A DNA stretch of 64,000 nt, from assembly GCA_963718615.1 (NCBI GenBank), contig OY970368.1, positions 1,792,001 to 1,856,000 on the forward strand. The letters run 5' to 3'. Both the position numbers and the translations under genes were made by a program. The stretch comes from an uncultured cyanobacterium. Lineage in GTDB: Bacteria; Cyanobacteriota; Cyanobacteriia; PCC-9006; JAAUQQ01. The notes under the pieces are model-generated. The model had not been told where the DNA came from. It worked only from the letters and a program-made list of their open reading frames with translations, and made no database searches. This document shows positions 3,024 to 20,828 of this stretch, in pieces (position 1 is the first letter of the stretch; each line of letters starts with the position of its first letter).

Positions 3024-3376
3024 TGGCACTTCCTGATAATTTCAGCCCGGTTGAGCACTTCCAGGACTCAATCGGTCGAATCTACAACAAAGAGGTTAAA
3101 GACTGGTTCTCGGACCTTGACCCAGACGAGCTGGGCATCGACACCCCGCGCAGTTCACTAAGGACAGCGTGCTGGCATCAGGAGAACGATTCCGTCATGG
3201 TGACGGTCGGGCGAATGCTGCTGTTTGATATGGTGGTCGCCCGCAAGGTTCAGGGCAGCGGTAGCGACATCTATCAAGTGTCAAGACATTTGCCTGTCGC
3301 GACAATTAGAAGGCGGGGAGCCCACTGAATTGGCAAAAGGAAATGAGAAGCGGCAATCTCAGGTCAAGACGACAAT

Positions 3377-5735: not shown

Positions 5736-6586
5736 TCGTTAGAGTCCTTTCTTTCCAGGGGGACCCTATGAGTGTCTTTTTTTGTCGATCGCCACGCCAG
5801 TGAGCTGTCAAAGTCTCACGTCTGTCTCACGATCCAAGCCACGCTTTCGCGACAACTCCCGCCAGGAAATGTCGAGCAGCCGCCAATGCTATTGTCGTCT
5901 AACAGACATCGAAACCTCTCCCCCCTACCAGGTGAACCGACGGCATAAACCGCAGGTCACCCTGTTCTTCCTAGAAGATGCAGACCGGATTGAGCCCGGT
6001 TACCGTCAGGTTGAAGGGCGGATCAGCTTCCGCATCATGGACGAAACCGTGGAAACCATGACCCAAGCGAAAGCCACCCAGCTTGCCAACCGGGTGAAGA
6101 CCGCCATGGGGACCGGCGGCGGATTTGTCTGGAAGAAGGGCAAAGCCATGGCGACCTATGCCGACTGGGACAAGGGGTATCAACTCCAATTGTTCACCCC
6201 CAACAAGGTCGAGGCTAAGCGGCTGATTGAGCAGATTCTTGACATTCAGCAGCACACGCCGAACTGGAACTACCTCAATTACGAAGAAAACGACGACCCT
6301 AACGACGCTTACCCGACAATCCCGCCGACCCAAATCATCTTGGGCAAGTCGAGGCGGCTGGCGCGGCGACGGCCACGGGCTGACGTGAGGTTTCAGTATG
6401 CGGTTTTGACCCTCGCGGGTCTGCCGAATCCCATCGCTTTGTACGATCGCAGCGGGCGTTACCCTGACCCACTGGTCCTTTGAGTCGTTTGGATAATCTC
6501 GGAACGGTTTAACCCTTCCGAAAATCGAATATGCACTGATACGAGGCCAGAGTAGATGCAAAGTTTTTCGACGGATCTGAAGAATC

Positions 6587-7180
6587 ATGGCTAAACGCCG
6601 ACCTTACTCGCTAGTCCTGATTGGTGCTCGCAAAGAGTCCGCTCGGACCAAATATCTACAGTTTTTGGCTGGTGCAGCCGATCGCCCCAGCCGCATTGGC
6701 TCCCAAGGCGCTCGCCCGGAGCGCGTGAGCTTGGCCGTGCAACCTTTTGCCTTTTCGCTGCCTGAAAATATTCTTGCTCAAGGCTCCGCTCTTCTGCCTG
6801 CCGTTGTTTCCCTACAGGGGATCGCAGCAGTCAGCGAGCGCGTCAAATTGGGCGTCAAGACCGGCGCTCCGGCTACCTCAACCCCGACGGGTGTCAGCCT
6901 GACCCGGATTGCTGACACAGATGAGCTACTTGGCATCAAGAACTTCAGCCCAGCTCGCATCATTCGCCGGGTTTACCAAACCAAAACGGCAACTAAGAAA
7001 AACTCTGAAATCACTGGCCTTGCCTACGGCTACCGTAAGTCAACCTCGGTCTCTGTTCCTTTTGGGAAAAAGAACGCGACGGACACGATTACGGATGCCT
7101 TCAAGGCCGTCAGCGATGCGATCGAAGGTGCAGACGGAAACGGCCTAACTCAGGTCTTTCTGAAAGAAGAGGATGTCTAA
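6587..7180 (+). CDS. Basic hypothetical protein, paralog A
   Basis: K/R-rich 197 aa, colinear with next gene. Confidence 0.7.
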   Translation: MAKRRPYSLVLIGARKESARTKYLQFLAGAADRPSRIGSQGARPERVSLAVQPFAFSLPENILAQGSALLPAVVSLQGIAAVSERVKLGVKTGAPATSTPTGVSLTRIADTDELLGIKNFSPARIIRRVYQTKTATKKNSEITGLAYGYRKSTSVSVPFGKKNATDTITDAFKAVSDAIEGADGNGLTQVFLKEEDV

Positions 7181-7183
7181 GCT

Positions 7184-7765
7184 ATGGCTAAACGCAACCC
7201 TTACTCTCTGGTATTGATTGGGGCGCGGAAAGCTTCGGCTCGGACCAAGTACCTTGAGTTCCTGTCTGGCAGAGCCGACCGGCCTAGCCGGATTGGAACA
7301 AAGGGGCCTCGCTCACAAAGGTACCCGCTAGCTCTCCGCCCCTTTGCGGGAATTGTCCCAAATACTGTACTAGTGGCCACATCCGCATCGAAAGAGGCAG
7401 TTTTGGCCCTACAGGGATTCATTTCTATCCAAGGGCGAGTTGTTTATCGCTACTCTCCCTTGCCTGCGGAGATTCAGCTCACTTTCCCAGGCGCGGGACT
7501 AGACTTTTTAGAAATCAAGGGGTTTAGCCCAGCGCGGATCATTCGCAAGGTCTATCAAACTCGGACAGCTACGGTCAAAAAGTCGGAGACGACCGGCCTA
7601 ACCTATGGCTATAAAGCCTCGTCTACGCTTTCAATCCCAATCGGAAGAAAGAACGCGACTGATTCGCTCGTTGACGCCTTGAGCGCAGCGGGTGGAGCAA
7701 TTAGGGGGGCTGATGGTAGCGGGCTGACCAAAGTCTTCTTGAAAGAAGAGGAGATTCCCGCGTGA
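7184..7765 (+). CDS. Basic hypothetical protein, paralog B
   Basis: Shares MAKRxPYSLVLIGARK, FSPARIIRxVYQT, GxKNATD and GLTxVFLKEE with paralog A. Confidence 0.7.
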   Translation: MAKRNPYSLVLIGARKASARTKYLEFLSGRADRPSRIGTKGPRSQRYPLALRPFAGIVPNTVLVATSASKEAVLALQGFISIQGRVVYRYSPLPAEIQLTFPGAGLDFLEIKGFSPARIIRKVYQTRTATVKKSETTGLTYGYKASSTLSIPIGRKNATDSLVDALSAAGGAIRGADGSGLTKVFLKEEEIPA

Positions 7766-8058
7766 TTCATTGGATAGACCCCATTTTGCCCGAGGTTTTT
7801 CTAACCCCGGATCACAATCAGGCCGACACGGCCCAGGCGACCTTAGAAGCCCTTGAGCGGCAACGCATGGTTAAGGGCTTCTTCGAGGGGAGTATTGATG
7901 GGGACGTGGTTGATGATTGCCTCGCTGAACATGGGATTAATCCCCATGCTTTTTGGGTGCAGGCAGAAGAAAATATTGAGGAGTTCATTCTGATGGACCC
8001 TCAGGAAATTGAAGGTCTAGACCGGCTTTTGAGACATGGCCCTTACTTGGGATCCTGA
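7762..8058 (+). CDS. Acidic hypothetical protein
   Basis: GTGA-coupled ORF within operon. Confidence 0.6.
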   Translation: MIHWIDPILPEVFLTPDHNQADTAQATLEALERQRMVKGFFEGSIDGDVVDDCLAEHGINPHAFWVQAEENIEEFILMDPQEIEGLDRLLRHGPYLGS

Positions 8059-8518
8059 AAATAGTTCCAACTGGGAACTGACCTATTCGGATCAACGGTT
8101 TGAGGAGCAGAGGGAGGGATATCTCCCAAGGCGAAAGCGCATTCAGCCCTTCGTCATCCCAGTGCTTATCTCCTCACCGTTGATTGCGATTTGGACAGAC
8201 TCAGACGGTAAAAACGACACTTGGAACCTTGCGGGCTGGGTCCGGGGTGCCATTGCCGTACCCAGCTTAATCAATGACATCAAGCTGCTCAACGGCCCGA
8301 GTCAGGCGCTGCAATTGAGGGAGGCGACGCGGTTTGACTTTACGGCCAATCCGGCCAGTAGTTACCAACTGCGTATCTTCCCCCAAAGATACCTGCCAGA
8401 TCTCCGCATCAAGGTCTACGAATACCGTGGTCCTATCGGTGACAGCACCGAAGAATTGATCACAGTAACTAGAGTTGACCTTGCAAGAATCGAAACCAGA
8501 ATCAATGCCCTACTCTGA
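8036..8518 (+). CDS. Hypothetical protein, putative virion component
   Basis: Overlapping ORF in operon with beta-rich composition. Confidence 0.6.
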   Translation: MALTWDPENSSNWELTYSDQRFEEQREGYLPRRKRIQPFVIPVLISSPLIAIWTDSDGKNDTWNLAGWVRGAIAVPSLINDIKLLNGPSQALQLREATRFDFTANPASSYQLRIFPQRYLPDLRIKVYEYRGPIGDSTEELITVTRVDLARIETRINALL

Positions 8519-9716
8519 TGGCCTCACCCACGCTCGACGCGTTGATTTCAGCGCTCGGCTGTTCCCGGATACGACCAGCAAAACGCTGTATCGACCGGGC
8601 GATATTGACAATTTCTCCCTCCTGACTGGCTATCGCTACTCGGGCCAGGTGCTACAGCTTCAGATTTTTAGCAATCGCTTTTTGCGGCTGCGGTTTTGGA
8701 TTCAGACCACCTTAGGCGAGCGACTTTATTTCGGCCCAGAGCAGCCCGTAAATCGCGATCAGTTCCTGCTCAAGGAACACATCGCAGCGGGTCTATTCTT
8801 GGGCGGCGGGGCTTCGTTGGGGGTCGATATACCTGCGGGGCAAATCTTAGTTGAGGATCAAATCTCAATCCTGGGATTCGCTGAGGAGCGGGGTAACACT
8901 CGACCGCTTCGCACCGTTGAGGGCGGCATCGCCTGGGGGGATATTGGCGGAGACCTGGGAAACCAGGGGGACATCGCTGATGCGCTGACCGCTCAGGCGG
9001 AGAACTTCGCCAGCGAGCTGGCGGCGATCGACATCGCCCAAGAGGCCCAGGACAATCTGATTGCAGATCTACAGCAGGCCCAAACGACCCAAGAGACGCA
9101 ATTCTCTGGGGATATTGAGACGCTGCAAGGCGACGTGATCCAGCTTCAGACAAGTGTTGGGAACATCCAGAGTCAGCCGGGAGGAGTGAGCGAGTTTCAC
9201 TATTACGGGCCGACCTTGCCCAGCGCCCCCACCGAGGGAGAGACCTGGAGGGAAACGACGGAGGCGGGGCTGTGGGTTGGAGATTGGGAATGGGTTTCGA
9301 GTTTGTCCAAGTGGATTGACAGATACCCCGTCTACTCGGACATGGCACAAAACATATGGGCTGCATCCGGAATCGCCTCGCTCACCAATTACGCATGGCT
9401 TCGACCTTCTCCAAACGCAGCAGTCCGGGGGGTCTTTCAGTTCCTAAGCCCGGATGACTCAAACCGCTACCACGTCATCAATGTTCAATGGGCGAGGCTG
9501 ACGGGAGGAAGTAGCAGCTACGAAGGAAGCGCGGTAAACGTGAACACCAAAGACATAGCTAGGCCATTGGGAAGCAACGAGGCGGCGATTTATGAAACGG
9601 AATGGAGATCGCTTGCCTACCCATGGCATGTGAGGTTTCAGATCACTGGGGTTGGATCACCGCTGCCCGCTATCTACGGCAGACTCTTGGCTGAACAACG
9701 AAATATACGGGGGTAA
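8505..9716 (+). CDS. Putative spike/fibre (receptor-binding) protein
   Basis: N-terminal beta region, WGDIGGDLGNQGDI motif, heptad coiled coil, PSAPTEGETW motif typical of phage fibres, C-terminal head region. Confidence 0.6.
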   Translation: MPYSDGLTHARRVDFSARLFPDTTSKTLYRPGDIDNFSLLTGYRYSGQVLQLQIFSNRFLRLRFWIQTTLGERLYFGPEQPVNRDQFLLKEHIAAGLFLGGGASLGVDIPAGQILVEDQISILGFAEERGNTRPLRTVEGGIAWGDIGGDLGNQGDIADALTAQAENFASELAAIDIAQEAQDNLIADLQQAQTTQETQFSGDIETLQGDVIQLQTSVGNIQSQPGGVSEFHYYGPTLPSAPTEGETWRETTEAGLWVGDWEWVSSLSKWIDRYPVYSDMAQNIWAASGIASLTNYAWLRPSPNAAVRGVFQFLSPDDSNRYHVINVQWARLTGGSSSYEGSAVNVNTKDIARPLGSNEAAIYETEWRSLAYPWHVRFQITGVGSPLPAIYGRLLAEQRNIRG

Positions 9717-9988
9717 TGATGAACTATTTCCGATTGATGGGGCTGATTGCCCAGCTCGCACAGATTGCAGAATCGACCGGCGGCCAAGTGCCCAAGGGCG
9801 ATGCGGGGCTGTATTTCCTTTGCCGCGCCTTCTGCGAGCGGTTGGAGGAGCGCAACCCCGGCATTGCTGAGGCGGCGGGGTTTGATTATGAGGTGCTGAC
9901 CTATCGAAATTTGGTGCCGAGGCCCCCCGCGACCTTTGCCCAGGTTCCGACGGCGGGACTATTGCGGGAGGATGACCCATGGAGTTAG
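9716..9988 (+). CDS. Hypothetical protein
   Basis: Coupled ORF in operon. Confidence 0.55.
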   Translation: MMNYFRLMGLIAQLAQIAESTGGQVPKGDAGLYFLCRAFCERLEERNPGIAEAAGFDYEVLTYRNLVPRPPATFAQVPTAGLLREDDPWS

Positions 9989-10188
9989 CGATCGCCCTCG
10001 CGGGTTTCATGGCCACATCAGCAGCGACCATCCTCAAGATCAACAATCATCTGGATAAGCGCTTTGATTTCCTTGAGCGGCGCATGGAAATCTTGAGCAC
10101 TTCCGTCGAGGGCAATCAGCGGCTAGTGGATCATCGGCTTGAGGTGCTGGAAGACCAACGATTTACGGTAAACGGGAAAGGACGATGA
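9979..10188 (+). CDS. Holin-like/XhlA-like small membrane protein
   Basis: N-terminal hydrophobic helix plus coiled coil, ATGA-coupled to amidase. Confidence 0.5.
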   Translation: MELAIALAGFMATSAATILKINNHLDKRFDFLERRMEILSTSVEGNQRLVDHRLEVLEDQRFTVNGKGR

Positions 10189-10748
10189 GAACGGTAGTGA
10201 TTGACCCAGGACACGGCGGATTTGACCCTGGAGCCGTGGCCAATGGGTTGCTTGAAAAGGATGTAGCGCTAGACATTGCAAGGCGGGTGCAGCGGCTAAC
10301 GCAGCGGCGAAACCTAGACTGCATCTTGACCCGTGACAGTGACCCAGCGCCGGGAACCGAGTTAAGCCTGGAGCGGCGCTGCGAGATTTCCAACGCGGCG
10401 CGAGCGGATTGTTTCGTTAGCATCCACTGCAATGCGGCGTCGAATCCCAACGCCTATGGCAGTGAGACGTTTTTTTGCAGGGGTAGCTATGGCGGCGCGG
10501 CGCTGGCCCGGTCGATTCAGGGGCAGTTTAATCAAAAGGTGCGAGAAATCCCTGAGCGCCGGGTGAGTGGTGCGGGGTTCTATGTCCTGAAATACACCGA
10601 TGCCCCGGCGGCGCTGGTGGAATGTGGATTTTTAACCAACACCGACGACGCCACGCTGCTGAAGAAAGAGGCGGTGAGACAGGCGATCGCCCAGGGAATC
10701 TCTGATGGCATCTTGGAATGGTTAAACGCGGGGGAAGCGGCGGCATAA
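10185..10748 (+). CDS. N-acetylmuramoyl-L-alanine amidase (Amidase_3), putative endolysin
   Basis: IDPGHGG, LEKD, SIHCNA and LVECGFLTN motifs; no signal peptide. Confidence 0.92.
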   Translation: MRTVVIDPGHGGFDPGAVANGLLEKDVALDIARRVQRLTQRRNLDCILTRDSDPAPGTELSLERRCEISNAARADCFVSIHCNAASNPNAYGSETFFCRGSYGGAALARSIQGQFNQKVREIPERRVSGAGFYVLKYTDAPAALVECGFLTNTDDATLLKKEAVRQAIAQGISDGILEWLNAGEAAA

Positions 10749-10768
10749 CTTCACCCTAATTCACCCTG

Positions 10769-11182
10769 CTACAGCAGACTGAGCTGGGCTTCTTTGACCT
10801 TCCGAGTTTTCCACCCTCGGATCATCTTCAAAATTGAATCAGCACTCTGACCACGGGCGATCGCTTTCTCTACGGCGATCGCCCGTTGTTGTGCGATGGG
10901 GTTGCTCACATTGCCGCCGGGAATGTGGATGGAGTGGACAACCTTATGGCCAGCCCAGACCTGGTAACGGAAATACAGCACCCCATTGGTACCACCGGGG
11001 AGCTTGTGTAAGGCATGACCGACGCTGAGCGTAGGAGGCTCCGTAGAGCTAACGAACGACTCTCGATCGGTTTTGCGCCGCATAGGATGAGGGGTGATGC
11101 TTTGATCACCCTCGCCAGGTGCGGCGGCGCTAGAATTCGTTAGCAACGGTGGGACAGGGGTTTGGGGGTTTGGTGTGTTCAT
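10769..11182 (-). CDS. Hypothetical protein
   Basis: 137 aa ORF convergent with amidase; YFRY..HIPGGN segment. Confidence 0.6.
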   Translation of the reverse strand: MNTPNPQTPVPPLLTNSSAAAPGEGDQSITPHPMRRKTDRESFVSSTEPPTLSVGHALHKLPGGTNGVLYFRYQVWAGHKVVHSIHIPGGNVSNPIAQQRAIAVEKAIARGQSADSILKMIRGWKTRKVKEAQLSLL

Positions 11183-11289
11183 TTCACGATGTCCTGAGAA
11201 AGTGTTTAAGCGCTGTTTGATGGCTTAGCCCATTTCTACCGTTTAAATCGCTGAACTGCTTGCTGGGTGTGCGTTTCGCTACTTAAACG

Positions 11290-11676
11290 CTATTCGGCTT
11301 CAAGGGAACTGAGGAAATATTCATAGACGCCCTGACAGGAGCTGGGCTTGACTTCGAGGCTGTCCGCTGCCTCACTGAATGACCGCATCCAATCCAGGTA
11401 GTCAGCTTTCTGACCGGCCTGAGCGTCTTTTGTGGCCAGGTTGGCGGCCATGCTGTTAGCGACGGTTGGCGATTCGGTGCATTTGCTGGCGATCGCGTTG
11501 AACTGCTCGACATAGGGGGCGATCGCCTTGGGGTCCGCAGGGTCTTTGCCGTCACGCTTGGCCATGACTTGAGCGAATTCCTCTGACTTCATCTCTTGCA
11601 CCCTGGGACCAGGCGCAACCGGGGAATTGCAGGCGGTCAACAGCAGGGCGAGGGTAGCGACGGTAAGAATTTTCAT
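11290..11676 (-). CDS. Lipoprotein (possible superinfection exclusion)
   Basis: Signal peptide with lipobox LTAC. Confidence 0.65.
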   Translation of the reverse strand: MKILTVATLALLLTACNSPVAPGPRVQEMKSEEFAQVMAKRDGKDPADPKAIAPYVEQFNAIASKCTESPTVANSMAANLATKDAQAGQKADYLDWMRSFSEAADSLEVKPSSCQGVYEYFLSSLEAE

Positions 11677-11679
11677 GGG

Positions 11680-12588
11680 TTAGGCCAGTTGTTGTGCTTC
11701 CAGAATGCCCAGCTCTGGACCCGCGAGACCGTAGGGGATGCCGAGGCGATCGCATTCCTCCCGCACCTTGGCACGCTGCCCAGGGAATGCCCGCCACTTG
11801 GCTGCAAGGCGAGCGGCTTGAGCTTCAGCAGTGGGCGGCGCGGTGGGAACCGGCGGCGGCAGCTCTGGCCAGAGGGCACCCGCGAGAATGCGATCTGCCA
11901 CAGTGGGCGGGGCTTGCTGACTGGCTTGAAATTCTGCCCAGAGAGCGGGGCGCTGCTTGGCGATCCAAGATTCAGCAGCGGCGTGGGGGGACTGGGGAGG
12001 CTGAGGGAAGCGCCGCACCTTGGCCAGGACGAAATTAAAAAATTCGGGGTCAGCGGCGGCGGCGGAAAATTTGCCACCGGCAGTTTGAGCAGCCTTAGAC
12101 CGGGGTGTGTTTTGGGGAGCTGATACCGCAACCGGGGTACTGAAGCTTCTCCGGACTGGGTTCGGTTCCGGTTCGATCGCGTGCGCTTCTCTCTCTCTTT
12201 TTATTGTCTTAGAGTCTTTAAATTCTTTATTGTTTGAGGACTCTTCAAAGCCAGTGTTTAAGCGGGTTTCAGAGGTTGGATGTTCACCAGCGTGAACGTC
12301 TTGTTCACCAGCGTGAACGTCTTGTTCACCAGCGTGAACGTCTTGTTCACCAGCGTGAACGTCTTGTTCACCAGCGTGAACGAGCCAGCCCTTTGCATCC
12401 AGTGATTTTAGAGCGGCACTGATACCGCTTTTGGCCAATCCCGTTGCACGGGCGATCGCAGTCGGACCAGGGCGATCGCCACGGCAAAACGGGTCATGGG
12501 CTTTGAGGTAGAGATAGACAATGATCTCTACCTTGGAAAGCTCGGAAAGCTTGCAGACCGTGGATTCCGTGAGGCGATAGTGTTTCAC
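11680..12588 (-). CDS. Putative replication initiator (N-terminal winged HTH, internal iterons)
   Basis: IARATGLAKSGISAALKSLDAKGWL HTH followed by VHAGEQD repeats and a K/E-rich linker, the layout of lambda O-like initiators; GTGA-coupled start. Confidence 0.65.
   Translation of the reverse strand: MKHYRLTESTVCKLSELSKVEIIVYLYLKAHDPFCRGDRPGPTAIARATGLAKSGISAALKSLDAKGWLVHAGEQDVHAGEQDVHAGEQDVHAGEQDVHAGEHPTSETRLNTGFEESSNNKEFKDSKTIKREREAHAIEPEPNPVRRSFSTPVAVSAPQNTPRSKAAQTAGGKFSAAAADPEFFNFVLAKVRRFPQPPQSPHAAAESWIAKQRPALWAEFQASQQAPPTVADRILAGALWPELPPPVPTAPPTAEAQAARLAAKWRAFPGQRAKVREECDRLGIPYGLAGPELGILEAQQLA
12281..12382. repeat. 21-bp tandem repeat TGTTCACCAGCGTGAACGTCT (4 full copies + 18 bp), putative iterons/origin
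   Basis: Exact copies starting at 12281, 12302, 12323, 12344, 12365; each contains the inverted repeat GTTCAC-N4-GTGAAC; AT-rich tract adjacent at ~12190-12260. Confidence 0.85.
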
Positions 12589-12788
12589 TGTGGCGGTTCC
12601 TCCACTTGAAACCACCAGCCCTCACCATTGACACAACGAAGCCCCAACGCACCGCGCCGATTACCGCCCATGCGTTGCGCCGCCCAGGCGATGAGCATGA
12701 GCAGCTCGGTTTCGCTCAGGTAAAACACGGTCTCGGGACCGCTGACAAACTCTTTGATTTCCTTTCTCATGGGTGCTCCAAACGACAA
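12585..12788 (-). CDS. Small hypothetical protein
   Basis: Coupled to Rep gene; start uncertain. Confidence 0.4.
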   Translation of the reverse strand: MSFGAPMRKEIKEFVSGPETVFYLSETELLMLIAWAAQRMGGNRRGALGLRCVNGEGWWFQVEEPPQ

Positions 12789-12812
12789 AGCCGTAACCCC
12801 AATGGGTTACGG

Positions 12813-13025
12813 CTACTCTTCCTCTTCAGTTTCAACGCTTGCGACTTCAGCGGCTAGGGCTTCGAGTTGTTGGAGCTGGTGCTTTAACTCTTCCAGTGCA
12901 GCAGCGTGAGCGGCGATCGCCTGCTCTTCAGTTGCAATCAGATGGCGCGTTGATTCGATCTGACTGCAAAGAATTCCCCCAGCATTTTCCCCGCTGAGGG
13001 CATCAACACCGCATCCTCTTGAGCC
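12813..13025 (-). CDS. Small coiled-coil protein (start uncertain)
   Basis: GGILCSQIESTRHLI..LEELKHQLQQLEAL heptads; overlaps regulator gene. Confidence 0.45.
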   Translation of the reverse strand, partial: GSRGCGVDALSGENAGGILCSQIESTRHLIATEEQAIAAHAAALEELKHQLQQLEALAAEVASVETEEEE

Positions 13026-13186
13026 AAGGCCCTGAACCACTGAGTTCGGTTGCTGAATCCGTGAATCTTGGCCTTTTCCTGAAGCTTCTCCCACAAGCTC
13101 CTTTCTATCTGGACTGTCCCGTTTACCGTGTCTTCCCCGAGCACCTTGGGGCGACCGGGACCCCTCTTTTTCTCCGATTTGGACAT
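12938..13186 (-). CDS. Ribbon-helix-helix-like regulator with N-terminal GRPK motif (putative repressor)
   Basis: MSKSEKKRGPGRPKVLG..TVQIERSLWEKLQEKAKIHGFSNRTQWFRALA; GAGG upstream. Confidence 0.65.
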   Translation of the reverse strand: MSKSEKKRGPGRPKVLGEDTVNGTVQIERSLWEKLQEKAKIHGFSNRTQWFRALAQEDAVLMPSAGKMLGEFFAVRSNQRAI

Positions 13187-13213
13187 ATTTACTGGGCATT
13201 CACTACACCTCAT

Positions 13214-13292
13214 TTTTGCACGTGGATAAAAGGGGATTGACTTAAAGTTATCCCACGTGGATAATGCTGTCAAAGGTTTTCCACGTGCGAAA
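13214..13292. promoter_or_regulatory. Overlapping divergent sigma70 promoters with three CACGTG-centred operators
   Basis: + strand TTGACT(13237)-17 bp-GATAAT(13260); - strand TTGACA(13273)-17 bp-TAACTT(13250); CACGTG at 13219, 13254, 13282. Confidence 0.75.
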
Positions 13293-13394
13293 ACCAATAA
13301 AACCGAATACCGGGCACCCGCACGGCAGCGAGTACAACAACTTGCTGATGGGGTTGGACTCCCCAGGCCCTTCCCCCCCCTAAGGCCCCGCACC

Positions 13395-13461
13395 ATTGAC
13401 CGCCTGAATTCCCATCAGCCTCGGTGAAATTATTGACCGCCTGATGTCAGCCTCGGTGAAA
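13395..13461 (+). repeat. Two tandem copies of ATTGACCGCCTGA..TCAGCCTCGGTGAAA (hairpin-forming leader)
   Basis: Copies at 13395-13429 and 13432-13461. Confidence 0.75.
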
Positions 13462-13877
13462 GAGCGCGCGGGAGCTGCAAACCGAATCATTTCTAGTTTG
13501 GTGAGTGCTTGCTCACCGGGCACAGGATTGTTTTGTCTATGCACTTTGAAATCTGGAGAATGGGCGAAAACGCCTGTAACCTATACGGCGCAAGCCCTCA
13601 CAGCAGACTGCACAAGCTGTTAGATGCCGCCCCAACCGGGCGCTATCACATCAAACAAATACCACCGGCAAGGGATAGGGAGGACCGCGACCAGGGCAAC
13701 GCAAACCCCCGACGGACCGAAGCATCCTAGGATCTCCGTCAATCTGAACCAGCGGCGTGAACAACGCGCCGCGCCCTGCTCAAACTTGAGCCACGACCGC
13801 CACGATCACCAACAAAAAAGGGCCAGAAGGCCCAAAGTGTTGTCTACAAGCTGCTTGAAGCAATTACCAAAACCACT

Positions 13878-14357
13878 ATGACCCAAGAAACACCGGAAAC
13901 ACCGCGTAATTACGAGGAATTGACCCAGTTATGGGGCATTGACATCGAATCGCTCAAGAAAGCTCGCACCAAGGCCGAATTAGTCGAGGGCGTGCATTTC
14001 ATCCGCAAGCCTGAGGAGCAAGGGCGGCTCTATTTCACCTCCGAAGGCCAGGACGCGATGGCTAAAGCCCTTGGCATTGCGCCGATGGCGGAATGTTCGG
14101 ACCTTGGCTCCGAACATTTGGAGGGCGGCTCCGAACATTTGGACATTCCCGAGACCATGGGGGAAGCGATGGCGAGTCAGTTTGCCTATCCAGCGGCGAT
14201 CGCCTTCTTCCAGCACTTCCCCGCTGCGGTTGCTCGGGAGGTCCGACGCATGATCCAATCGCCCTCCGATGAAGAGAAACCCATTGTCTATGGGGCCATG
14301 CAGCTTGCTATGGGAGCGGCTACCGACCCAAAAGGCTACTTGGAGGGCAAATCATGA
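13878..14357 (+). CDS. Hypothetical protein, possible N-terminal HTH/excisionase-like domain
   Basis: LVEGVHFIRK..GRLYFTSEG segment; first large gene of rightward operon. Confidence 0.6.
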   Translation: MTQETPETPRNYEELTQLWGIDIESLKKARTKAELVEGVHFIRKPEEQGRLYFTSEGQDAMAKALGIAPMAECSDLGSEHLEGGSEHLDIPETMGEAMASQFAYPAAIAFFQHFPAAVAREVRRMIQSPSDEEKPIVYGAMQLAMGAATDPKGYLEGKS

Positions 14358-14698
14358 GGCATCCAGAGCTTGATGATACCGCTGTTCCCTCATGGGCATT
14401 TGGTCACCAGCAACCCTACATGGCCGTTGGACAGCCCTATGCCCCGGTCGCCCCTGTCTATCAGCAACCACCGAGCAAGGCCCCCGCCTCCGCTCCTAAT
14501 GGGGTTGGGTCGATTCTTTGCATGGCGCTGAGTGCGTTTGTCGCTGGGGCGGCGATCGCCTCAGTCTTTGCCTACCAGGCCCCAAGCGCTGTTAGTGCTC
14601 GGGAGCTGGAACAGCGCGCTGCCATGGAATCCCAGCGGGCCGCTCAGTACCAAGACCGTTTGCTTCAAGTTCGTAACGTTGCTTGTGAGACTTATTAG
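14354..14698 (+). CDS. Single-TM hypothetical protein
   Basis: Hydrophobic helix followed by coiled coil; ATGA coupling. Confidence 0.6.
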   Translation: MRHPELDDTAVPSWAFGHQQPYMAVGQPYAPVAPVYQQPPSKAPASAPNGVGSILCMALSAFVAGAAIASVFAYQAPSAVSARELEQRAAMESQRAAQYQDRLLQVRNVACETY

Positions 14699-14700
14699 CG

Positions 14701-15201
14701 ATGTCCATATTCAATAAACTGACCACCCTAGGCCGAGGGTCTAGCGCCAAGATTGGAGGCCATGCCCTCAGAGATTCTTCTGTGATGGCACCGACTACCC
14801 CAGGGGCAATCAATCCCATGAACCCCGGCGCAATGGCTCACGCTCGGTCTGTGCCCATCATTCGTCAGCCCCGCTACTTCAAGCCAGGGGAAGACCAGGC
14901 GCTTCAAGAATTCGCCTATGCCAAGCGCCAACAGCTTGCGGCATCACGGCGAGCCTATAAAGCCCTGGAGTCGGTGGAACACTCCGATGCTGAACTGACA
15001 GCAACCCATCGGCAATACGAGGCCACCGTTGCTGATGGGGAGCTTCATAAGAAAGCCGCTGATGTGAAGTACGCACGGCATCTTCACCACCAGCGCCCTC
15101 AATACGCCATGCTCAATCAGGCCGTGGCTACGGCACGGGTTGAGGCGGGCTCAACCATTGGGCGCTACATGGCCACCGTTCAGCAGCTAGCAGGAGCATA
15201 G
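14701..15201 (+). CDS. Helical hypothetical protein
   Basis: 166 aa ORF in operon. Confidence 0.6.
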   Translation: MSIFNKLTTLGRGSSAKIGGHALRDSSVMAPTTPGAINPMNPGAMAHARSVPIIRQPRYFKPGEDQALQEFAYAKRQQLAASRRAYKALESVEHSDAELTATHRQYEATVADGELHKKAADVKYARHLHHQRPQYAMLNQAVATARVEAGSTIGRYMATVQQLAGA

Positions 15202-15204
15202 ACC

Positions 15205-15480
15205 ATGAAGGCGATGCACCTGACGAGCTTGTTCTTGATGGCGTGCATCGCCTCTAGCGGGCTTGCTTGGTTGGCTGGAGTTGCGCCGCCGTTGGGGCGA
15301 ACTGTGGGTTTTCTGTATTCCCTCACGGCGATCGCCTGGGTCGCCTGTTGGGTCCTCGATGAGCCGATCCAGCGTTATTTGGCGGTCGATGAGATGACCT
15401 ACCAGGCGCTGCTGATTGGGTTTGCGATCGCTGTCCTGTTGGGAGGTCTAGCGCGGCTATGCCTGACATTGCTTGGATGA
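15205..15480 (+). CDS. Small multi-TM protein
   Basis: Three hydrophobic segments. Confidence 0.6.
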   Translation: MKAMHLTSLFLMACIASSGLAWLAGVAPPLGRTVGFLYSLTAIAWVACWVLDEPIQRYLAVDEMTYQALLIGFAIAVLLGGLARLCLTLLG

Positions 15481-15947
15481 AAACCAGTGCCTTTCTGGCT
15501 GCATCATCAGCCCTTTGGGTTGCATCGATGTCCCCAGCGGTACCGCTGCCCACTCAGGCGCTGTGCTTGGTTGGGGCGCTGGCTACCTGCGGGTTTGCCG
15601 TATCGGAATCCCGGCGCTCTATTCCTTCCGCCATTCAGCAGCGGGTGCGGGCTGGATTGGATATGCAGATGATGCAGCAGGAGATGGCGATCGCCGCCTC
15701 ATCCATGGAACAGGCCATCATGAGCCAGTACTTTCCCGGCATGGTGGAGCATCCACAAGCCGCGCGCGAGCAGCTTGAGCAGATGTACGCCGCGAGCCCT
15801 GAATGCAGCCCTGAGCTATACCGAGCGGTGAAGATGCTGGCCAACTCTGGCTACTCCCACGAGGGCATTGCACGGGAGATTTTAGGCGTTGAGGACGTTG
15901 CCAAGGTTGGACGAATTTTGAAGTTTGGAGAGGAGCAAGGATGGTAG
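15477..15947 (+). CDS. Two-TM protein with C-terminal HTH-like segment
   Basis: ATGA coupling; SGYSHEGIAREILG. Confidence 0.55.
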   Translation: MKTSAFLAASSALWVASMSPAVPLPTQALCLVGALATCGFAVSESRRSIPSAIQQRVRAGLDMQMMQQEMAIAASSMEQAIMSQYFPGMVEHPQAAREQLEQMYAASPECSPELYRAVKMLANSGYSHEGIAREILGVEDVAKVGRILKFGEEQGW

Positions 15948-16243
15948 ACCACGTAAGACTTTCAGAGACATCGCCCTTTTTTGAGGCGTTTGGCGGTTCG
16001 CTGCCAATTCGCTTCGGCGGCCCGGTTTATCAGGTCGATTTGGATCGCTGTACCGGCGTTCAGATTGAGGCGCTGGCTCGCATTGGCCAGCAACTGCTTG
16101 ATGAGGATGATGAGTTGCGGGATAAATCGGTCGCGGTCGTTGCCCAAAGCTTTTATACGGTCGGAGTGAATGTGAAAATGACCCACATCCACCCCGCTGT
16201 TAATCAGGCTTTCGCAGCCCTGGAGAATCATGATGCTTTCTGA
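15941..16243 (+). CDS. Hypothetical protein
   Basis: Overlapping ORF in operon. Confidence 0.55.
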   Translation: MVDHVRLSETSPFFEAFGGSLPIRFGGPVYQVDLDRCTGVQIEALARIGQQLLDEDDELRDKSVAVVAQSFYTVGVNVKMTHIHPAVNQAFAALENHDAF

Positions 16244-16568
16244 TGTTCGCTACGGTTCCCGGCTCAATGGCACCTATATCGAGGTGGGGGGCGATTTAGA
16301 GCCCGGTGATAGCGCGATGGATTGTCTTAATCAGCTTCAAGTTCTAGTCGAGCGGGAGCTACACCGCTATGCGCCGCGTGAGTTCTGCGAAATCAACCAT
16401 GTCGATCCAACCAAGACCGGCAGCTTAACCAACCGCATGAGCATCAAAATGCAGCGGGCGCGGCTTGAGGTCGATTGCCTTCATGGGCGTGAGCAGTTGA
16501 TTTCCGATCTGACGCTCATTTTGACCCGTGGCCATGAACTTTTGAAGCAGCTAAACAAAACCGCCTGA
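16230..16568 (+). CDS. Hypothetical protein
   Basis: Overlapping ORF, last gene before the non-coding region. Confidence 0.55.
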   Translation: MMLSDVRYGSRLNGTYIEVGGDLEPGDSAMDCLNQLQVLVERELHRYAPREFCEINHVDPTKTGSLTNRMSIKMQRARLEVDCLHGREQLISDLTLILTRGHELLKQLNKTA

Positions 16569-16856
16569 CGAGCGCCGCCGGACACGCGGCGCGAAACGGG
16601 GAACGCTTCCCCGTCGCGGATGGTGTCCAAAGCCGCCGCACGTATGAGAGAGGCTTATTGACTTACCGGCATCCTGGGTTAGGTGCATCTGCCAGACGAG
16701 GCTTGAGAGGATATCGGGCCTCTCTCTTGTAGCAGCATCTAATTAGGAAGCTTTTTAACATATCGGCAACCTCATGCGTCAAATCCCATGGCTTAAGGGG
16801 TATTTGGGCTCTTTTTTGGAGCCTTTAGAGGATATCGGTACGCAAAGGGGATCCAA
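16569..16856 (+). ncRNA. Candidate bridge RNA of the IS110-like recombinase
   Basis: ORF-free; stems 16580-85/16623-28, 16596-603/16607-14, 16646-54/16718-26, 16775-79/16840-44, 16806-11/16819-24; ATATCGG three times; loop segments match the junction at 18017-18032. Confidence 0.65.
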
Positions 16857-18020
16857 TTGAAGATTTTAGGGATTGATGTCTCTAGGGGAAGCATTACCGT
16901 ATGCCCCCTGGAGATTTTGCCGCGCGAATTTAAGCGCTATCGCGAGGGAATTGAGAAATTTACCCTCAGCGTCGAGGGTGTCGAGGGCTTGCTGGCCATG
17001 GGCGCGAGTGGCGCGATACTGGAGCCAACCGGTGGCCATTACTCGCGGCTATGGGCGCTTAAGCTGGAAGCGGCGGGCGTAGTGGTCCGATGGGTTGAGC
17101 ATGGGGCGATTGATGCCTACCGCAAATCTCACCGATGCCCGAATAAGTCAGACCTACATGACGCCGTAGCGCTTGCCTGCTATGGGCTGGAGAACTGGGA
17201 GAGGCTTGAGTATTTCATCAGACCTAGCGACCTGGTGCTGAAAGAACACTGCTTAGCGATTCAGCACCTTAATCGCTCGGTCAATGGCTCGGTCAATCGC
17301 CTTAAGCAGCAACTCAACCATGAGTGGCCAGAGGTTGCACGCTTTACCGCCGCGACCAAATGGGGCGAGGAACCGCCGCCGCTACTGAGATACATTGCAG
17401 GGGAAGAGACCCGATCCAAATGGGGCGATATTGCAGCAGACAGCATCGGGACCGGCATTGGGCGTTTTTCTCGGATGCTTGCCCAGCAAGTCTGTATGCA
17501 GCAACGGCACCGGGCAGAGATTGAGCGAGCGATTGAGCTTGAGATTGAGCGCGAAGACTTCAAACCCTACCGGCTCGCTATGGAGCGCTGCGGAATTACC
17601 GCCTATCGCTGCATGGCGGCGCTGATTGTGGCCCTCTACCCGTTTGAGCGCTTTCTGAAGGATGGCAGGATCATCTATGAGCGCATCGAAACCAAGACCG
17701 GTAAGCGGGCGCGGCGCAATCGTTCCCGCGCGGCGTTTAAGCTGGCTTGCGGATTGGGAATGATTTGGTATCAGAGCGGTGATAAGCAGGGGTTTAGACC
17801 CGGTGGATCATCTGAAGCCAGGAAAGCGCTGTATTTGTGGGCGCGTATGGCGATCGTGATTCGGGCGGGGCTTCAAACCCAAGAGACAAACCCGTTCATT
17901 CTGGAAATGCAGGACTACTATCGATCCAATACCGCACCGACAAAGCAGAAGATTCAAAGAACGGTGCGACGCGTGCTCGATAGGTTGTTTGTAGAATTGG
18001 TTCGGGAGTTTGAGCGTTAG
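16857..18020 (+). CDS. IS110-family DEDD recombinase (divergent cyanobacterial type)
   Basis: RuvC-like GIDVS, LEPTG and KSDLHDA (D-E-D-D); C-terminal YQSGD catalytic Ser and GSSEARKALY. Confidence 0.88.
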   Translation: MKILGIDVSRGSITVCPLEILPREFKRYREGIEKFTLSVEGVEGLLAMGASGAILEPTGGHYSRLWALKLEAAGVVVRWVEHGAIDAYRKSHRCPNKSDLHDAVALACYGLENWERLEYFIRPSDLVLKEHCLAIQHLNRSVNGSVNRLKQQLNHEWPEVARFTAATKWGEEPPPLLRYIAGEETRSKWGDIAADSIGTGIGRFSRMLAQQVCMQQRHRAEIERAIELEIEREDFKPYRLAMERCGITAYRCMAALIVALYPFERFLKDGRIIYERIETKTGKRARRNRSRAAFKLACGLGMIWYQSGDKQGFRPGGSSEARKALYLWARMAIVIRAGLQTQETNPFILEMQDYYRSNTAPTKQKIQRTVRRVLDRLFVELVREFER

Positions 18021-18032
18021 GGCGTATGTTAA
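18017..18032 (+). other. Predicted right attachment junction, core TAT at 18025-18027
   Basis: TTAGGGCGTAT matches 16793-16803 at 9/11; TATGTTAA is the exact reverse complement of 16755-16762. Confidence 0.6.
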
Positions 18033-18067
18033 TAAGTGCTGTTCATCCAGTCGGGATCACTTTGCGT

Positions 18068-19498
18068 ATGTCGCGATCGCCAGAGCCAGAGGATTTCTTC
18101 AGTGCTTTTGACCATGCCCTGGACAACGCCTTAGAAAATGCCTTAGACAATCCGTTTGAGACGGTCTTGAACGGAACCGAGGCGGCTTTGGAGGTGCGAT
18201 CGGACTATATTCAGGGCTTTTCCGGCAGGCGAATCAAGGCCGCGCTGGTGCTGCTGAGCGTTTGGCTGGTGGTGATTGGCCTCTACCTGGTGCCCTGGGG
18301 CAGTCGTCTGGTGGCGATTTTCCTGGGATTGCTCTGTATCCAGGCCCTGCGGCTGATCTCGGCGCGTCCGGCGGAGATCCCCGAACCCCTGGCGGGAGAT
18401 CCGGCAACTTGGCCGACAGTGGCCCTCTTGGCGGCGGCGAAGGACGAGGAAGGGGTCATTGAGCGCCTCGTCCATGACCTGTGTAATGTGGATTATCCGC
18501 GCGATCGCTACGAAGTCTGGATCATCGACGACAACAGCCAGGACCGCACGCCGGAAATTTTGCGGCGCTTACAACAGACCTACTCCCAACTGCGGGTGTT
18601 TCGGCGATCGCCCGATGCCACCGGGGGGAAATCCGGTGCGCTTAATCAGGTATTTTTGCGGACCCAGGCGGATTTCCTGGCCATTTTTGATGCCGATGCC
18701 CAGGTGCCTCCGGATTTATTGCGGCGATCGCTCCCCCGCTTCCAGAATCCCGAAGTAGGAGCGGTCCAGGTCCGCAAGATTATTGCCAACGCGACCCAAA
18801 ATTGGCTGACACGGGGTCAGAGCGTTGAGATGATGCTCGATGCCTATTTCCAACAGCAGCGGACGGCGATCGGCGGCATTGGCGAACTGCGAGGCAATGG
18901 TCAACTTTTGCGTCGTGCAGCCTTAGAACGCTGTGGTGGTTTTAACGAAGAAACCATTACCGACGACCTGGATTTAACCTTGCGGCTCAATCTTGATCAG
19001 TGGGATGTGGACTTTTTGCTTCATCCCGGTGTTCTCGAAGAAGGCGTCACCACGCCCCTTTCCCTGTGGCACCAGCGCAACCGCTGGGCGGAAGGCGGCT
19101 ATCAACGCTACCTTGACTACTGGCGACTGATTGCCGACAACCGCATGGGCACAAACCGCACCATCGACCTCCTGGGCTTTTTGATCATTCAATATCTTCT
19201 GCCCATGGCGATTCTGCCAGACCTGTTGATGGCGTTGCTTCAGCAACGGCTGCCGCTGCTGGCTCCCATGGGGATTTTGTCCATTGGCTTGCCGAGCCTC
19301 GCCCTCTGGACCGGCATCCGCCGCAGCTATTTTGCTGAGCATGGCCATTATCCTTCGGCGTTTAAGACCCTGGTTCAATCGGTTTGGGGAATGTTGTATA
19401 TGCTTCACTGGATGATTGTGATGACCGGTGTGACCGTGCGGATGTCCGTACGGGCAAAGCGCCTAAAATGGGTGAAAACGATTCACCATGGTGCCTAA
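18068..19498 (+). CDS. mgdA: Monoglucosyldiacylglycerol synthase (GT2)
   Basis: GT2 motifs DDNS, GGKSGALN, FDAD, TDDLDL, QRNRWAEGGYQRYLDY; C-terminal KWVKT. Confidence 0.85.
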   Translation: MSRSPEPEDFFSAFDHALDNALENALDNPFETVLNGTEAALEVRSDYIQGFSGRRIKAALVLLSVWLVVIGLYLVPWGSRLVAIFLGLLCIQALRLISARPAEIPEPLAGDPATWPTVALLAAAKDEEGVIERLVHDLCNVDYPRDRYEVWIIDDNSQDRTPEILRRLQQTYSQLRVFRRSPDATGGKSGALNQVFLRTQADFLAIFDADAQVPPDLLRRSLPRFQNPEVGAVQVRKIIANATQNWLTRGQSVEMMLDAYFQQQRTAIGGIGELRGNGQLLRRAALERCGGFNEETITDDLDLTLRLNLDQWDVDFLLHPGVLEEGVTTPLSLWHQRNRWAEGGYQRYLDYWRLIADNRMGTNRTIDLLGFLIIQYLLPMAILPDLLMALLQQRLPLLAPMGILSIGLPSLALWTGIRRSYFAEHGHYPSAFKTLVQSVWGMLYMLHWMIVMTGVTVRMSVRAKRLKWVKTIHHGA

Positions 19499-20126: not shown

Positions 20127-20828
20127 ATGGCAGTAGACAATTGTATCGAGTTCTATCAAACCTTTCCTAAAGGGCTCAAGCAGATCGTCGGCAGCGAGGG
20201 CAACGATGTTTACTTCGGGCGATCAAGCTTCAACAACTACAACGGCGCTGGCGGTAATGACTATATTCTTACCGTCCAGGGTCGCAGCTTATTTTCGGGG
20301 GGAGACGGCAGCGACTATCTCGTTGGGGGACGCCTCAACGACTTGTTGTCCGGCGATGCAGGGGACGACTTTCTCTGGGGTGGTGGTGGTAACGATTGTT
20401 TGATTGGCGGCGCTGGCCACAACGTTCTCGTTGGCGGCGGTGGCAGCGATACGTTTGATGTCTTATCCTTCAAAAGTGCTGCTATTCCTGGCGTTTTTTA
20501 CATCATTGATCCGGGCGGTTCGATTGATGGAGTGTCCCGCGTTCGGGATTTTCAGTCCAGTGAAGATACGCTGCGCCTTGATCTGCAAGATTTTGGTTTT
20601 ATTGGCAAACTTTCATCCTTAGATATTGTCGCCAGCGATGGGGCTGCGGCAACCAGTGAAGAAGTTCTGGTTTATAACGAGACCAATGGTAAGTTATTCT
20701 TGAACCTCAACGGCAGTAGCCCAGGGTTTGAGGGGAGCGGTGGCTTGATTAATTACAAAGGGGGCCTTTTTGCCGTTTTATCAGACGCTCCTGAACTGAC
20801 CTTTGAGGATTTGATTGTCATTCAGTGA
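20127..20828 (+). CDS. RTX/haemolysin-type Ca-binding repeat protein
   Basis: Multiple GGxGxD nonapeptide repeats. Confidence 0.85.
   Translation: MAVDNCIEFYQTFPKGLKQIVGSEGNDVYFGRSSFNNYNGAGGNDYILTVQGRSLFSGGDGSDYLVGGRLNDLLSGDAGDDFLWGGGGNDCLIGGAGHNVLVGGGGSDTFDVLSFKSAAIPGVFYIIDPGGSIDGVSRVRDFQSSEDTLRLDLQDFGFIGKLSSLDIVASDGAAATSEEVLVYNETNGKLFLNLNGSSPGFEGSGGLINYKGGLFAVLSDAPELTFEDLIVIQ

Follow-up and report, generated by a model that had tools for sequence, protein, structure and literature searches.

An IS110-family recombinase gene lies at positions 16857-18020 (plus strand) of the window, the stretch of 64,000 nucleotides from an uncultured cyanobacterium that was analysed here, and it raises the question of what this enzyme mobilises, a small jumping gene or a much larger element. 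An earlier note, made from the sequence alone, had favoured the second, proposing that an intact DEDD-plus-Ser recombinase and its guide RNA act as the integrase of a provirus of more than 18 kb; all the strings that it described were found in the window at the positions given for them, and its description of the gene holds. The intact ORF encodes 387 aa from a TTG start and passes the cut-offs of Pfam DEDD_Tnp_IS110 (PF01548, 31.1 bits, cut-off 29) and Transposase_20 (PF02371, 22 bits, cut-off 21.3) and of the NCBIfam IS110 family transposase model NF051857 (319 bits, cut-off 180), the match to NF033542 ('RNA-guided transposase') being below cut-off (56.5 bits against 140). The catalytic residues D7, E56, D99, D102 and S307 are invariant in 18 homologs (those of IS621 are named in Hiraizumi et al. 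2024, PMC11208158). A PDB search with the single recombinase sequence gave no match; the family profile matched two transposase chains, ISCro4 (E = 6e-7) and IS621 (E = 8e-5), and in the ISCro4 alignment the GIDVS, LEPTG, KSDxxD and YQSG motifs line up. The gene is present as a single copy in the complete 6.1-Mb genome, rather than in the several copies of a compact insertion sequence (IS), and no stand-alone copies of the kind that the earlier note had set against its own proposal were found; it is also single-copy in the Egbenema and Phormidesmis genomes described below. In a metagenome scan, 18 of 595 stretches were confirmed, and relatives 55-63% identical, found as proteins, were absent among the matches listed.

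The extent of the mobilised unit was established by synteny. In a relative (G001), the glycosyltransferase gene directly adjoins the homologue of the gene at window -1621 to -605, indicating that about 18.5 kb is inserted in the present genome. The empty site in G001 reads TTGACT-TAT-GTTAAT (in longer form, GGCATTTGTTGACT-TAT-GTTAATAGG); here the left junction (attL), 498 nt upstream of the window start, reads TTGACT-TAT-CCTCTAAGG, and the right junction (attR) reads GGGCG-TAT-GTTAATAAG, in short form GGGCG-TAT-GTTAAT. Counting both copies of TAT, the element is 18,526 bp long; its body, the cargo, starts outside the window at -498 (genome position C1:1791502) and occupies positions 1-16559 within it. 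The core TAT, which occurs a single time in the empty site and here at both 18025-18027 and -498 to -496, is the sole sequence common to attL, attR and the empty site, with no longer duplication. At the right end the recombinase stop codon TAG (18018-18020) is followed by GGCG, by the core and by the right half of the chromosomal attachment site (18028-18039), which lies upstream of a glycosyltransferase gene assigned by Pfam to family 2 (GT2); the name mgdA, proposed earlier for this gene, found no backing, only GT2 family matches being seen. G001 has the empty site TTGACTTATGTTAATA unchanged, a second relative (G003) has it with two mismatches and genomes of genus g3 with three. The genome itself contains neither a circle junction nor a restored empty site, and contigs from three freshwater metagenome runs yielded no joints, circles or empty sites; no RNA run with the locus was listed. 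One metagenome run (X1) contains a fragmentary variant of the element, most contigs being 90-99% alike; the parts that it leaves uncovered, including the secondary IS described below, are uninformative.

The 288-nt leader of the recombinase gene has a fold more stable than those of its shuffles (z = -3.62, none of 100 equalling it), in agreement with the earlier description of about 290 nt of structured non-coding DNA, about 60 nt of which had escaped recognition as a hammerhead ribozyme. This putative type I hammerhead (16560-16621, plus strand), with predicted cleavage after GUC, between 16615 and 16616, abuts the 5' side of a bridge RNA (16616-16856, plus strand), whose 5' end is predicted from that cleavage and whose identification is based on its fold, a 7-sequence consensus and guide matches. 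Like type I hammerheads (RF00163), it has a CUGANGA, GAAA, GUC core and three stems, stems II and III being closed by loops and stem I open; unlike them, it is joined to a bridge RNA at the latter's 5' end, an arrangement that we did not find in print, and scores below the gathering threshold. RF00163 was the best and a full-length match in an Rfam scan of 121 nt, at 16.3 bits against a gathering score of 34 (E = 0.15), and the hammerhead was not reported in an E-value scan of 2.5 kb. Comparative data argue for the assignment: in 24 sequences the core columns (CUGANGA ... GAAA ... UH, window 16565-16615) are invariant or nearly so, and compensatory double changes occur in 9 of the 13 predicted pairs, the three stem I pairs never varying, while a matching motif is present in 66 of 75 homologous loci. 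Loop II (GACAC, 16581-85) is able to pair with GUGUC at 16623-27, and this pseudoknot is seen in 30 of the 42 unique instances (permuted mean 9.8, maximum 15). Bacterial hammerheads are known to have pseudoknots in which a loop pairs with the flank of stem I.

In the bridge RNA consensus the closing and distal stems of the target loop are recovered, with 10 of 21 pairs compensatory, and, the junctions being known from synteny, all four guides match them in canonical order. The left target guide AUUGACUUAC (16657-16666) matches the left flank TTGACTTA over 8 contiguous nt, TTGACTTA being identical to the left flank plus core both at attL here and at the G001 empty site; at its last core base the guide has C against the T of the target. 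The right target guide CUUUUUAACAUA (16751-16762) matches as reverse complement 11 of 12 positions of the right flank TATGTTAATAAG, 8 of them contiguous, and TTAACATA (16755-62) and the flank TATGTTAA (18025-32) are perfect reverse complements of each other. The left donor guide UUAAGGGGUAU (16793-16803), at which the earlier note had read TTAAGGGGTAT, agrees with the element right end TTAGGGCGTAT (18017-27) at 9 of 11 positions, and the hairpin GGGCTC-TTTTTT-GGAGCC comes after it. At 16822-16834 lies the right donor guide CCUUUAGAGGAUA, with AGAGGATA at 16827-34; as reverse complement it matches an unbroken 10 nt of TATCCTCTAA, the left end of the element (window -498 to -489). All four lie on the plus strand, and ATATCGG follows both right arms.

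The earlier note had expected the left junction to read AGCAG-(T/C)AT-CCTCT. The TAT-CCTCT part exists, 498 nt upstream of the window, and TATCCTCT, the exact prediction from the right donor guide, is found there next to a tyrosine recombinase gene. The AGCAG part was wrong, because the left target guide had been assigned to AGCAGCAU / AGCAGCAT, the latter at 16731-38, instead of AUUGACUUAC; the flank is TTGACT, at this junction and equally at the empty site, whose existence in related strains had been correctly foreseen. When the guides were scanned over 19.5 kb of upstream sequence, the true left junction was the top-scoring site. As a chance control, exact guide-match scores were summed at the synteny-fixed junctions and compared with those of 2000 dinucleotide shuffles of the RNA; the summed score was reached by 1 of 2000 shuffles and that of the left junction alone by none. 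Taken by itself, the right junction has an exact-match score no better than chance (reached by 322 of 2000 shuffles), owing to the two mismatches of the left donor guide.

A further segment, g2 (UUGAGAGGAUAUCGG, 16703-16717, plus strand), is a second copy of the right donor guide located in the apical hairpin of the target-binding loop, and it contains the third ATATCGG (16711-17). The two copies form a direct repeat of 12 nt, which 1 of 500 shuffles attained, and they change together in the relatives compared; we found no such extra copy in a target loop in print. Between the upstream operon and the recombinase ORF no promoter-like site was found on the plus strand, and the one terminator-like match in this gap (16698-16722) is the g2 hairpin itself.

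Guide-delimited elements were recognised in five other cyanobacteria, ranging from 7.8 to about 15-16 kb, and two were confirmed by empty sites. The Egbenema element (7.8 kb) has an empty site in the one relative examined, and the Phormidesmis element (13.8 kb) has the exact predicted one, CACGAAACCT-TAA-GATAATCC, in all five relatives examined, TAA being the core there and playing the same part as TAT here. In the three elements with empty sites, all four guides fit at both junctions. The left junctions in Egbenema, Phormidesmis and Nostocales were themselves placed by guide match, the independent evidence there consisting of the empty sites and the shared cargo. In three Nostocales genomes they lie 13.1-14.3 kb upstream of the ribozyme; they were located by a joint search with the left target guide and the donor guide, allowing 3-4 mismatches, with the control strand also matching at 4. 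The right donor guide inferred for this clade pairs imperfectly with the left end (the junction matches needed those 3-4 mismatches), and an exact search for its reverse complement in five genomes returned only the guides themselves. These three junctions were accepted because their left-end sequence is the same (GAATCCCCAG/C), their distances are similar and the cargo within is shared. In four loci (L038, L050, L067 and L043) a right end is joined directly to a left end, and in four others (L018, L019, L099 and L004) left or right junctions were not placed in the sequence examined. The recombinases are 42-49% identical among the three elements compared, whereas identity of this clade to the Nostocales homologs is only about 30%. 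The distance from bridge RNA to left end is 6-17 kb across the six elements.

Given that the guides match both ends of the 18.5-kb element, the IS110 recombinase looks like its integrase and not like a small jumping gene, and synteny and the empty site likewise bear out that the whole element, rather than a 1.4-kb IS, is the mobilised unit. We consider it highly probable that recombinase and bridge RNA form the integration/excision module at the right end of a plasmid-like integrative element.

The left end adjoins a gene for a small tyrosine recombinase (220 aa, minus strand, window -483 to 179, its N-terminal part at 1-179) with a Pfam Phage_integrase match (E = 2.5e-15) and weak Xer-like NCBIfam matches below cut-off; its position was counted against the integrase reading. 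One could accordingly picture a compact IS110 of about 1.47 kb, from ribozyme to right end, that landed by chance at the edge of an island integrated by the tyrosine recombinase, whose gene ends about 12 nt inside the left junction. Two further observations would fit such a picture: nucleotide similarity among the Nostocales copies is confined to the stretch from ribozyme to right end (about 1.65-1.75 kb), and AGCAG happens to lie at 16546-50, just 5' of the ribozyme. AGCAG as the left flank of a 1.47-kb IS is nevertheless ruled out by synteny and the empty site, which place the junction at window -498. The left target and right donor guides match that junction, 17 kb upstream of the module, and not the sequence next to the ribozyme, so that the ends do not closely flank recombinase and RNA as in a compact IS; nor did the 21 Nostocales loci examined show any convincing left-end sequence in the 2.7 kb or so that precede the ribozyme. 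As for the island, its ends share TAT alone, instead of att repeats that would fit only the tyrosine recombinase, and 3 nt is too short for the overlap region of a tyrosine recombinase. Homologs of the tyrosine recombinase gene are internal in four other elements (Phormidesmis and the three Nostocales) and were not found in Egbenema. A compact IS beside such an island is therefore, in our judgement, extremely improbable.

The cargo bears on what kind of element this integrase would serve. Three gene families (A-C) are common to all six elements, with 23-63% amino-acid identity among elements or to homologs on the plasmid pHT582-2. Family A (1845-3023, plus strand) has 392 aa here and 578-915 aa in the other elements; it has no Pfam or PHROG match, and AlphaFold2 with 6 sequences reached a mean pLDDT of 34.7. 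Family B is present in two halves (3023-3328 and 5782-6483), split by a secondary DDE (Mu-like) IS of about 2.6 kb (3272-5900, ends approximate, minus strand; PHROG 1157 transposase, E = 5e-64) that has 15 matches in the genome, 12 of them full length at 100% identity; since a conserved cargo gene is interrupted, the present copy may be decaying. Immediately upstream of the module, a packed operon of small ORFs (13624-16568, plus strand) has its last stop codon (16566-68) inside the CUGA box of the ribozyme, and homologs of three of its ORFs lie upstream of the IS110 homolog in another locus (L091).

The label of provirus given to the element was not borne out: scans of 27 element ORFs against Pfam and/or PHROGs turned up no capsid, portal, terminase, tail or Zot families, and a small circular cyanobacterial plasmid has the conserved cargo core in common with the elements. 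A provirus whose structural genes are too divergent to be recognised, with the IS110 module as its integrase, would account for the N-acetylmuramoyl-L-alanine amidase of endolysin type (10185-10748, plus strand; Pfam Amidase_3, E = 2.3e-50; PHROG 435 endolysin, E = 1.9e-47), for weak PHROG matches to replication initiators at 11680-12615 (E = 2e-4) and for the nearest Atlas clusters of family B, which are viral hypothetical proteins (scores 0.88-0.89, leads only). IS110-type transposases do occur in phages, as in the filamentous phage Af1 (PMC11209303). Nevertheless, family A matched none of 50,697 phage records and does match two plasmids, and families A and B lie side by side on pHT582-2 (CP019638.1), a circular plasmid of 15.6 kb from Nostocales cyanobacterium HT-58-2 with ParA/ParB, so that the cargo looks plasmid-like and a cryptic provirus seems unlikely. 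Like the six elements, pHT582-2 has homologs of family B (28-63% identity) and family A (29-58%) and a gene annotated 'integrase'; unlike them, it encodes ParA/ParB, lacks the IS110 module and is recorded as a free replicon. Judging by these homologies, the elements probably carry backbone genes of an integrative plasmid-like element.

The presence of families A and B on a plasmid without IS110 could, on the other hand, suggest an 'expanded' IS110 locus, of the kind described by Hu et al. (2026), in which a once-compact IS gained unrelated plasmid DNA by half-matched recombination, the cargo being incidental and not co-evolving. Much of the cargo, including the secondary IS, is indeed specific to the present copy, and the preprint describes sizes that grade continuously up to about 100 kb, the cargo being mostly plasmid-derived. 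However, all three cargo families are kept in six of six elements although the recombinases have diverged, which argues for a long-standing unit. The fit of all four guides, instead of half-matches, at both junctions of the three elements with empty sites, and the position of the bridge RNA far from the left end in every element, also speak against accretion, which we regard as very unlikely here.

For the integrative plasmid-like element that we favour, the arrangement suggests the following sequence of events. The module would be transcribed with the upstream plus-strand operon or by read-through from it, and the hammerhead would cut after the GUC at 16615, so that the freed RNA begins with the bridge RNA and runs on into the recombinase message. 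The donor-binding loop could then pair with the joined ends of the circular element (GGGCG-TAT-CCTCT) and the target-binding loop with the conserved site upstream of the glycosyltransferase gene, the DEDD/Ser recombinase presumably exchanging strands at the 3-nt core. It is tempting to go further and postulate a distinct class of RNA-guided integrative replicon, in which the hammerhead carves the bridge RNA out of an operon transcript, tying integration/excision to the expression of element genes, and in which the extra guide copy lets the target loop hold the left junction (left target flank plus element left end) in a bent insertion-substrate geometry, giving an efficient built-in excision that canonical IS621 lacks; this extension is possible, though we hold it rather doubtful.

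Bridge recombinases are under development as programmable DNA-writing tools, and the elements point to a natural role for them as integrases of replicon-like elements of 8-18 kb at unique chromosomal sites, with guides that can be read and checked against empty sites. A 5' hammerhead may represent a natural route to a bridge RNA from a long transcript, of relevance to polymerase II or operon expression, and a third guide-like segment in the target loop could bear on the bias of IS621 towards insertion over excision described in 2026. The analysis also explains a family of cyanobacterial mobile elements that recurs and had no name before, together with its attachment sites. Besides phage Af1, Neisseria Nf prophages carry IS110-type enzymes.

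Phage Af1 of Acinetobacter baumannii, in the passages considered, resembles the present element in having an IS110/DEDD enzyme on a 7-kb mobile replicon, presumably for its integration, and differs in its inovirus cargo (zot, coaA, coaB) and in that those passages contain no bridge RNA or ribozyme analysis (PMC11209303). Large cargo-bearing IS110 elements have already been described by Hu et al. (bioRxiv 10.64898/2026.08.14.744561); like the present ones, they far exceed 1.5 kb, carry plasmid-like cargo and have guides matching their flanks, whereas progressive accretion, half-matches and resistance cargo set them apart. In the elements analysed here a conserved gene core travels with the module in all six, and the four-guide fit holds in the three with empty sites. 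The main text of that preprint has no occurrence of cyanobacteria or ribozyme, its supplements might list such elements, and those of both Durrant et al. 2024 and Hu et al. 2026 may include members of the present clade. A further parallel is with the IS621/IS110 bridge systems of Durrant et al. 2024 (PMC11208160) and Hiraizumi et al. 2024 (PMC11208158). These combine a DEDD RuvC-like domain and a Tnp domain bearing a serine with a 5' non-coding bridge RNA in which two loops, for target and donor, each hold a top-strand left guide and a reverse-complement right guide on either side of a short core common to both. The present module shares the domains, the two-loop RNA, the guide polarity and a core at both junctions. 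It departs from IS621, as described there, in its core of 3 nt (TAT or TAA) instead of CT, in the preceding hammerhead, in the additional right donor guide within the target loop, and in belonging to a single-copy, site-specific element of 18.5 kb, in which 17 kb separates the bridge RNA from the left end, leaving it beyond the reach of any promoter formed anew at the joined ends.

In G001, the closest relative with the downstream glycosyltransferase gene, this gene adjoins the counterpart of the gene found here at -1621 to -605 (negative coordinates lie upstream of the window start), and the empty site reads GGCATTTGTTGACT-TAT-GTTAATAGG. The junctions that delimit the insertion here are GGCATTTGTTGACT-TAT-CCTCTAAGG on the left, at 498 nt before the window start, and TTAGGGCG-TAT-GTTAATAAG on the right, which makes it 18,526 bp long with both TAT copies included. 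Other relatives likewise retain the attachment site upstream of the glycosyltransferase gene (0 to 3 mismatches in 16). The insertion lies within the conserved upstream region of the glycosyltransferase gene, which contains a TTGACT box, and it may have displaced the promoter. In the stretch 18026-18075, the listed ATG of this gene (18026) overlaps the core TAT, relatives align only from residue 11-55, and GTATGTCGCGATCGCC at 18066 is conserved in G001; the true start is probably downstream of the listed ATG. Beyond this gene, 20127-20828 (+) encodes an RTX calcium-binding nonapeptide-repeat protein (HemolysinCabind, E = 2.3e-15).

The right edge of the insertion is 4 nt from the end of an ORF (16857-18020, 387 aa) that passed curated cut-offs as an IS110-family recombinase, with the DEDD residues and the serine invariant among 18 homologs. 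In a profile search its family profile matched the solved ISCro4 and IS621 transposases. The gene is present in one copy in the complete 6.1-Mb genome, and its homologs (59 proteins; 80 loci kept of 132 confirmed) are cyanobacterial.

Four guides follow one another in canonical order along the RNA encoded ahead of this gene. The left target guide (16657-66, AUUGACUUAC) contains TTGACTTA, the left flank plus core, and the right target guide (16751-62, CUUUUUAACAUA) is reverse-complementary to TATGTTAATAAG at 11 of 12 positions. The left donor guide (16793-803, UUAAGGGGUAU) agrees with the right end TTAGGGCGTAT at 9 of 11, and in the right donor guide (16822-34, CCUUUAGAGGAUA) 10 contiguous nucleotides are reverse-complementary to the left end TATCCTCTAA. 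The strings quoted in the earlier note were all found where it had placed them and, since the right donor guide pairs with the actual left end, its prediction of TAT-CCTCT was right; the left target arm that it proposed, AGCAGCAT, is not the guide, which lies at 16657-66 instead. In a blind scan of the 19.5 kb upstream, the true left junction came out as the top-scoring site. When the RNA was dinucleotide-shuffled 2000 times, the left-junction score was never reached, the right-junction score was reached 322 times and the summed score once.

The 288-nt leader folds more stably than its shuffles (z = -3.62), and the consensus of seven bridge RNAs consists of a 5' hairpin, a closing stem, an internal loop with both target guides and a distal stem, with compensatory changes in 10 of 21 pairs. 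A second copy of the right donor guide occupies the loop of the hairpin that tips the distal domain (16703-17); its length is 12 nt here and 14 nt in Phormidesmis, with 10-11 nt in two others, and by eye this copy varies in step with the right donor guide across the clade; bridge RNAs of the Nostocales clade have the four canonical guides only. We found no published description of such a hairpin copy.

Directly 5' of the bridge RNA, at 16560-16621, lies ACC-GC-CUGACGAG-[stem II]-CGAAAC-[stem III]-GUC-GCGG, for which the Rfam type I hammerhead was the best match, aligned over its full length with a score under the model threshold. MAFFT/RNAalifold analysis of 24 loci recovered the three-stem fold, 9 of whose 13 pairs show compensatory changes, and a relaxed hammerhead motif was detected in 66 of the 75 loci with enough upstream sequence, several of the remaining nine having mutated versions. 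In 30 of the 42 unique instances, loop II pairs with the 5 nt after stem I, using at least six different words (permuted mean 9.8, maximum 15). After the predicted cleavage the bridge RNA would start at 16616 with a 5'-OH. The upstream operon's final ORF terminates inside the CUGA box and no promoter-like site was found in a + strand scan from the operon to the recombinase ORF, which makes it plausible that the bridge RNA is co-transcribed with this operon; the sole terminator-like match in that stretch (16698-16722) is the guide-copy hairpin, which belongs to the bridge RNA itself. In the seven closest bridge RNAs (16616-16639 and homologs), GUCCAAA immediately 3' of the ribozyme does not vary; part of this region takes part in the ribozyme pseudoknot, and after cleavage the new 5' end could form a GCGG/CCGC hairpin. 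Two homologous loci have double hammerhead-like motifs, which may be tandem or nested modules: at L032:4230-4290 a second hammerhead-like motif starts about 15 nt past the recombinase stop codon, and at L028:1144-1379 two motifs are spaced 185 nt apart.

The same architecture was found in five other elements, whose left junctions were located by the guides themselves, with empty sites and shared cargo as the only independent support. According to its guides the Egbenema element is 7.8 kb, and its empty site is present in the one relative examined, apart from a TATA indel within a TA run. The Phormidesmis element is 13.8 kb by the same approach, and its predicted empty site CACGAAACCT-TAA-GATAATCC is exact in all five relatives examined; its right donor guide has an 11-nt match of which 3 nt belong to the target flank, as expected of a handshake guide. 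Evidence is weaker for the left junctions of the three complete Nostocales genomes, in which the left target guide and left end GAATCCCCAG/C would mark them 13.1-14.3 kb upstream of the ribozyme. All six elements have cargo families A, B and C in common.

A small tyrosine recombinase, present in five of the six, could be proposed as the integrase of these ends, but the two junctions have just 3 nt in common, four other elements have its homolog in an internal position and none was found in the Egbenema element, which argues against this role. Because of its weak Xer-like matches, our guess is that it might resolve multimers.

In four loci the right end is joined directly to a left end, suggesting tandem elements or else circular forms that were captured in the assemblies. 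Donor-type junctions (GAA-TCCCCAGAG...) occur at L038:4450, L050:2067, L067:4417 and in the flank of L043, whose 16.3-kb contig is about one element long. No circle of the present element was seen in its own genome or in contigs of three metagenome runs. A freshwater metagenome run (X1) contains fragmentary contigs of a close variant, most 90-99% alike to locus L129 (-799 to 18400). In Calothrix brevissima NIES-22 (L096:1243) the distance from a left-end sequence to the recombinase ORF downstream is only about 1.75 kb and a hammerhead motif was not found at the locus, which may be a shortened derivative.

Besides the tyrosine recombinase, the cargo includes an amidase, a protein weakly resembling replication initiators and many ORFs with no family assignment. 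The earlier note had regarded the element as a provirus with the IS110 module as its apparent integrase. No virion genes were found among the 27 element ORFs scanned (Pfam and/or PHROGs), and family A had no match among phage records and matches two Nostocales plasmids. On one of them, pHT582-2 (CP019638.1, 15.6 kb, circular), families A and B form an adjacent pair (2566-5525) next to ParA/ParB; the pair also neighbours a gene annotated as integrase, and no IS110 was found on this plasmid. The strain has a further plasmid, CP019637.1 (37 kb), with a family A match. Given that no virion genes were found and that the A-B pair lies on a free plasmid, the element is best read as a putative integrative, plasmid-like replicon, and a provirus with unrecognisable structural genes seems unlikely. 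Family B is split here by a 2.6-kb DDE IS (Mu-like, PHROG 1157; ~3272-5900, minus strand), of which the genome has 12 full-length copies at 100% identity, two partial pieces and a fragment.

We found no paper in which a hammerhead, or a natural ribozyme of any kind, is linked to IS110 or bridge RNAs; the single preprint containing all the terms deals with them as separate topics in the portion of its text consulted. Canonical bridge systems have been described (PMC11208160, PMC11208158, PMC13626964), an inovirus carrying an IS110 transposase is known (PMC11209303), and a report of August 2026 (bioRxiv 10.64898/2026.08.14.744561) described large cargo-bearing IS110 elements, so that large size by itself is not new.
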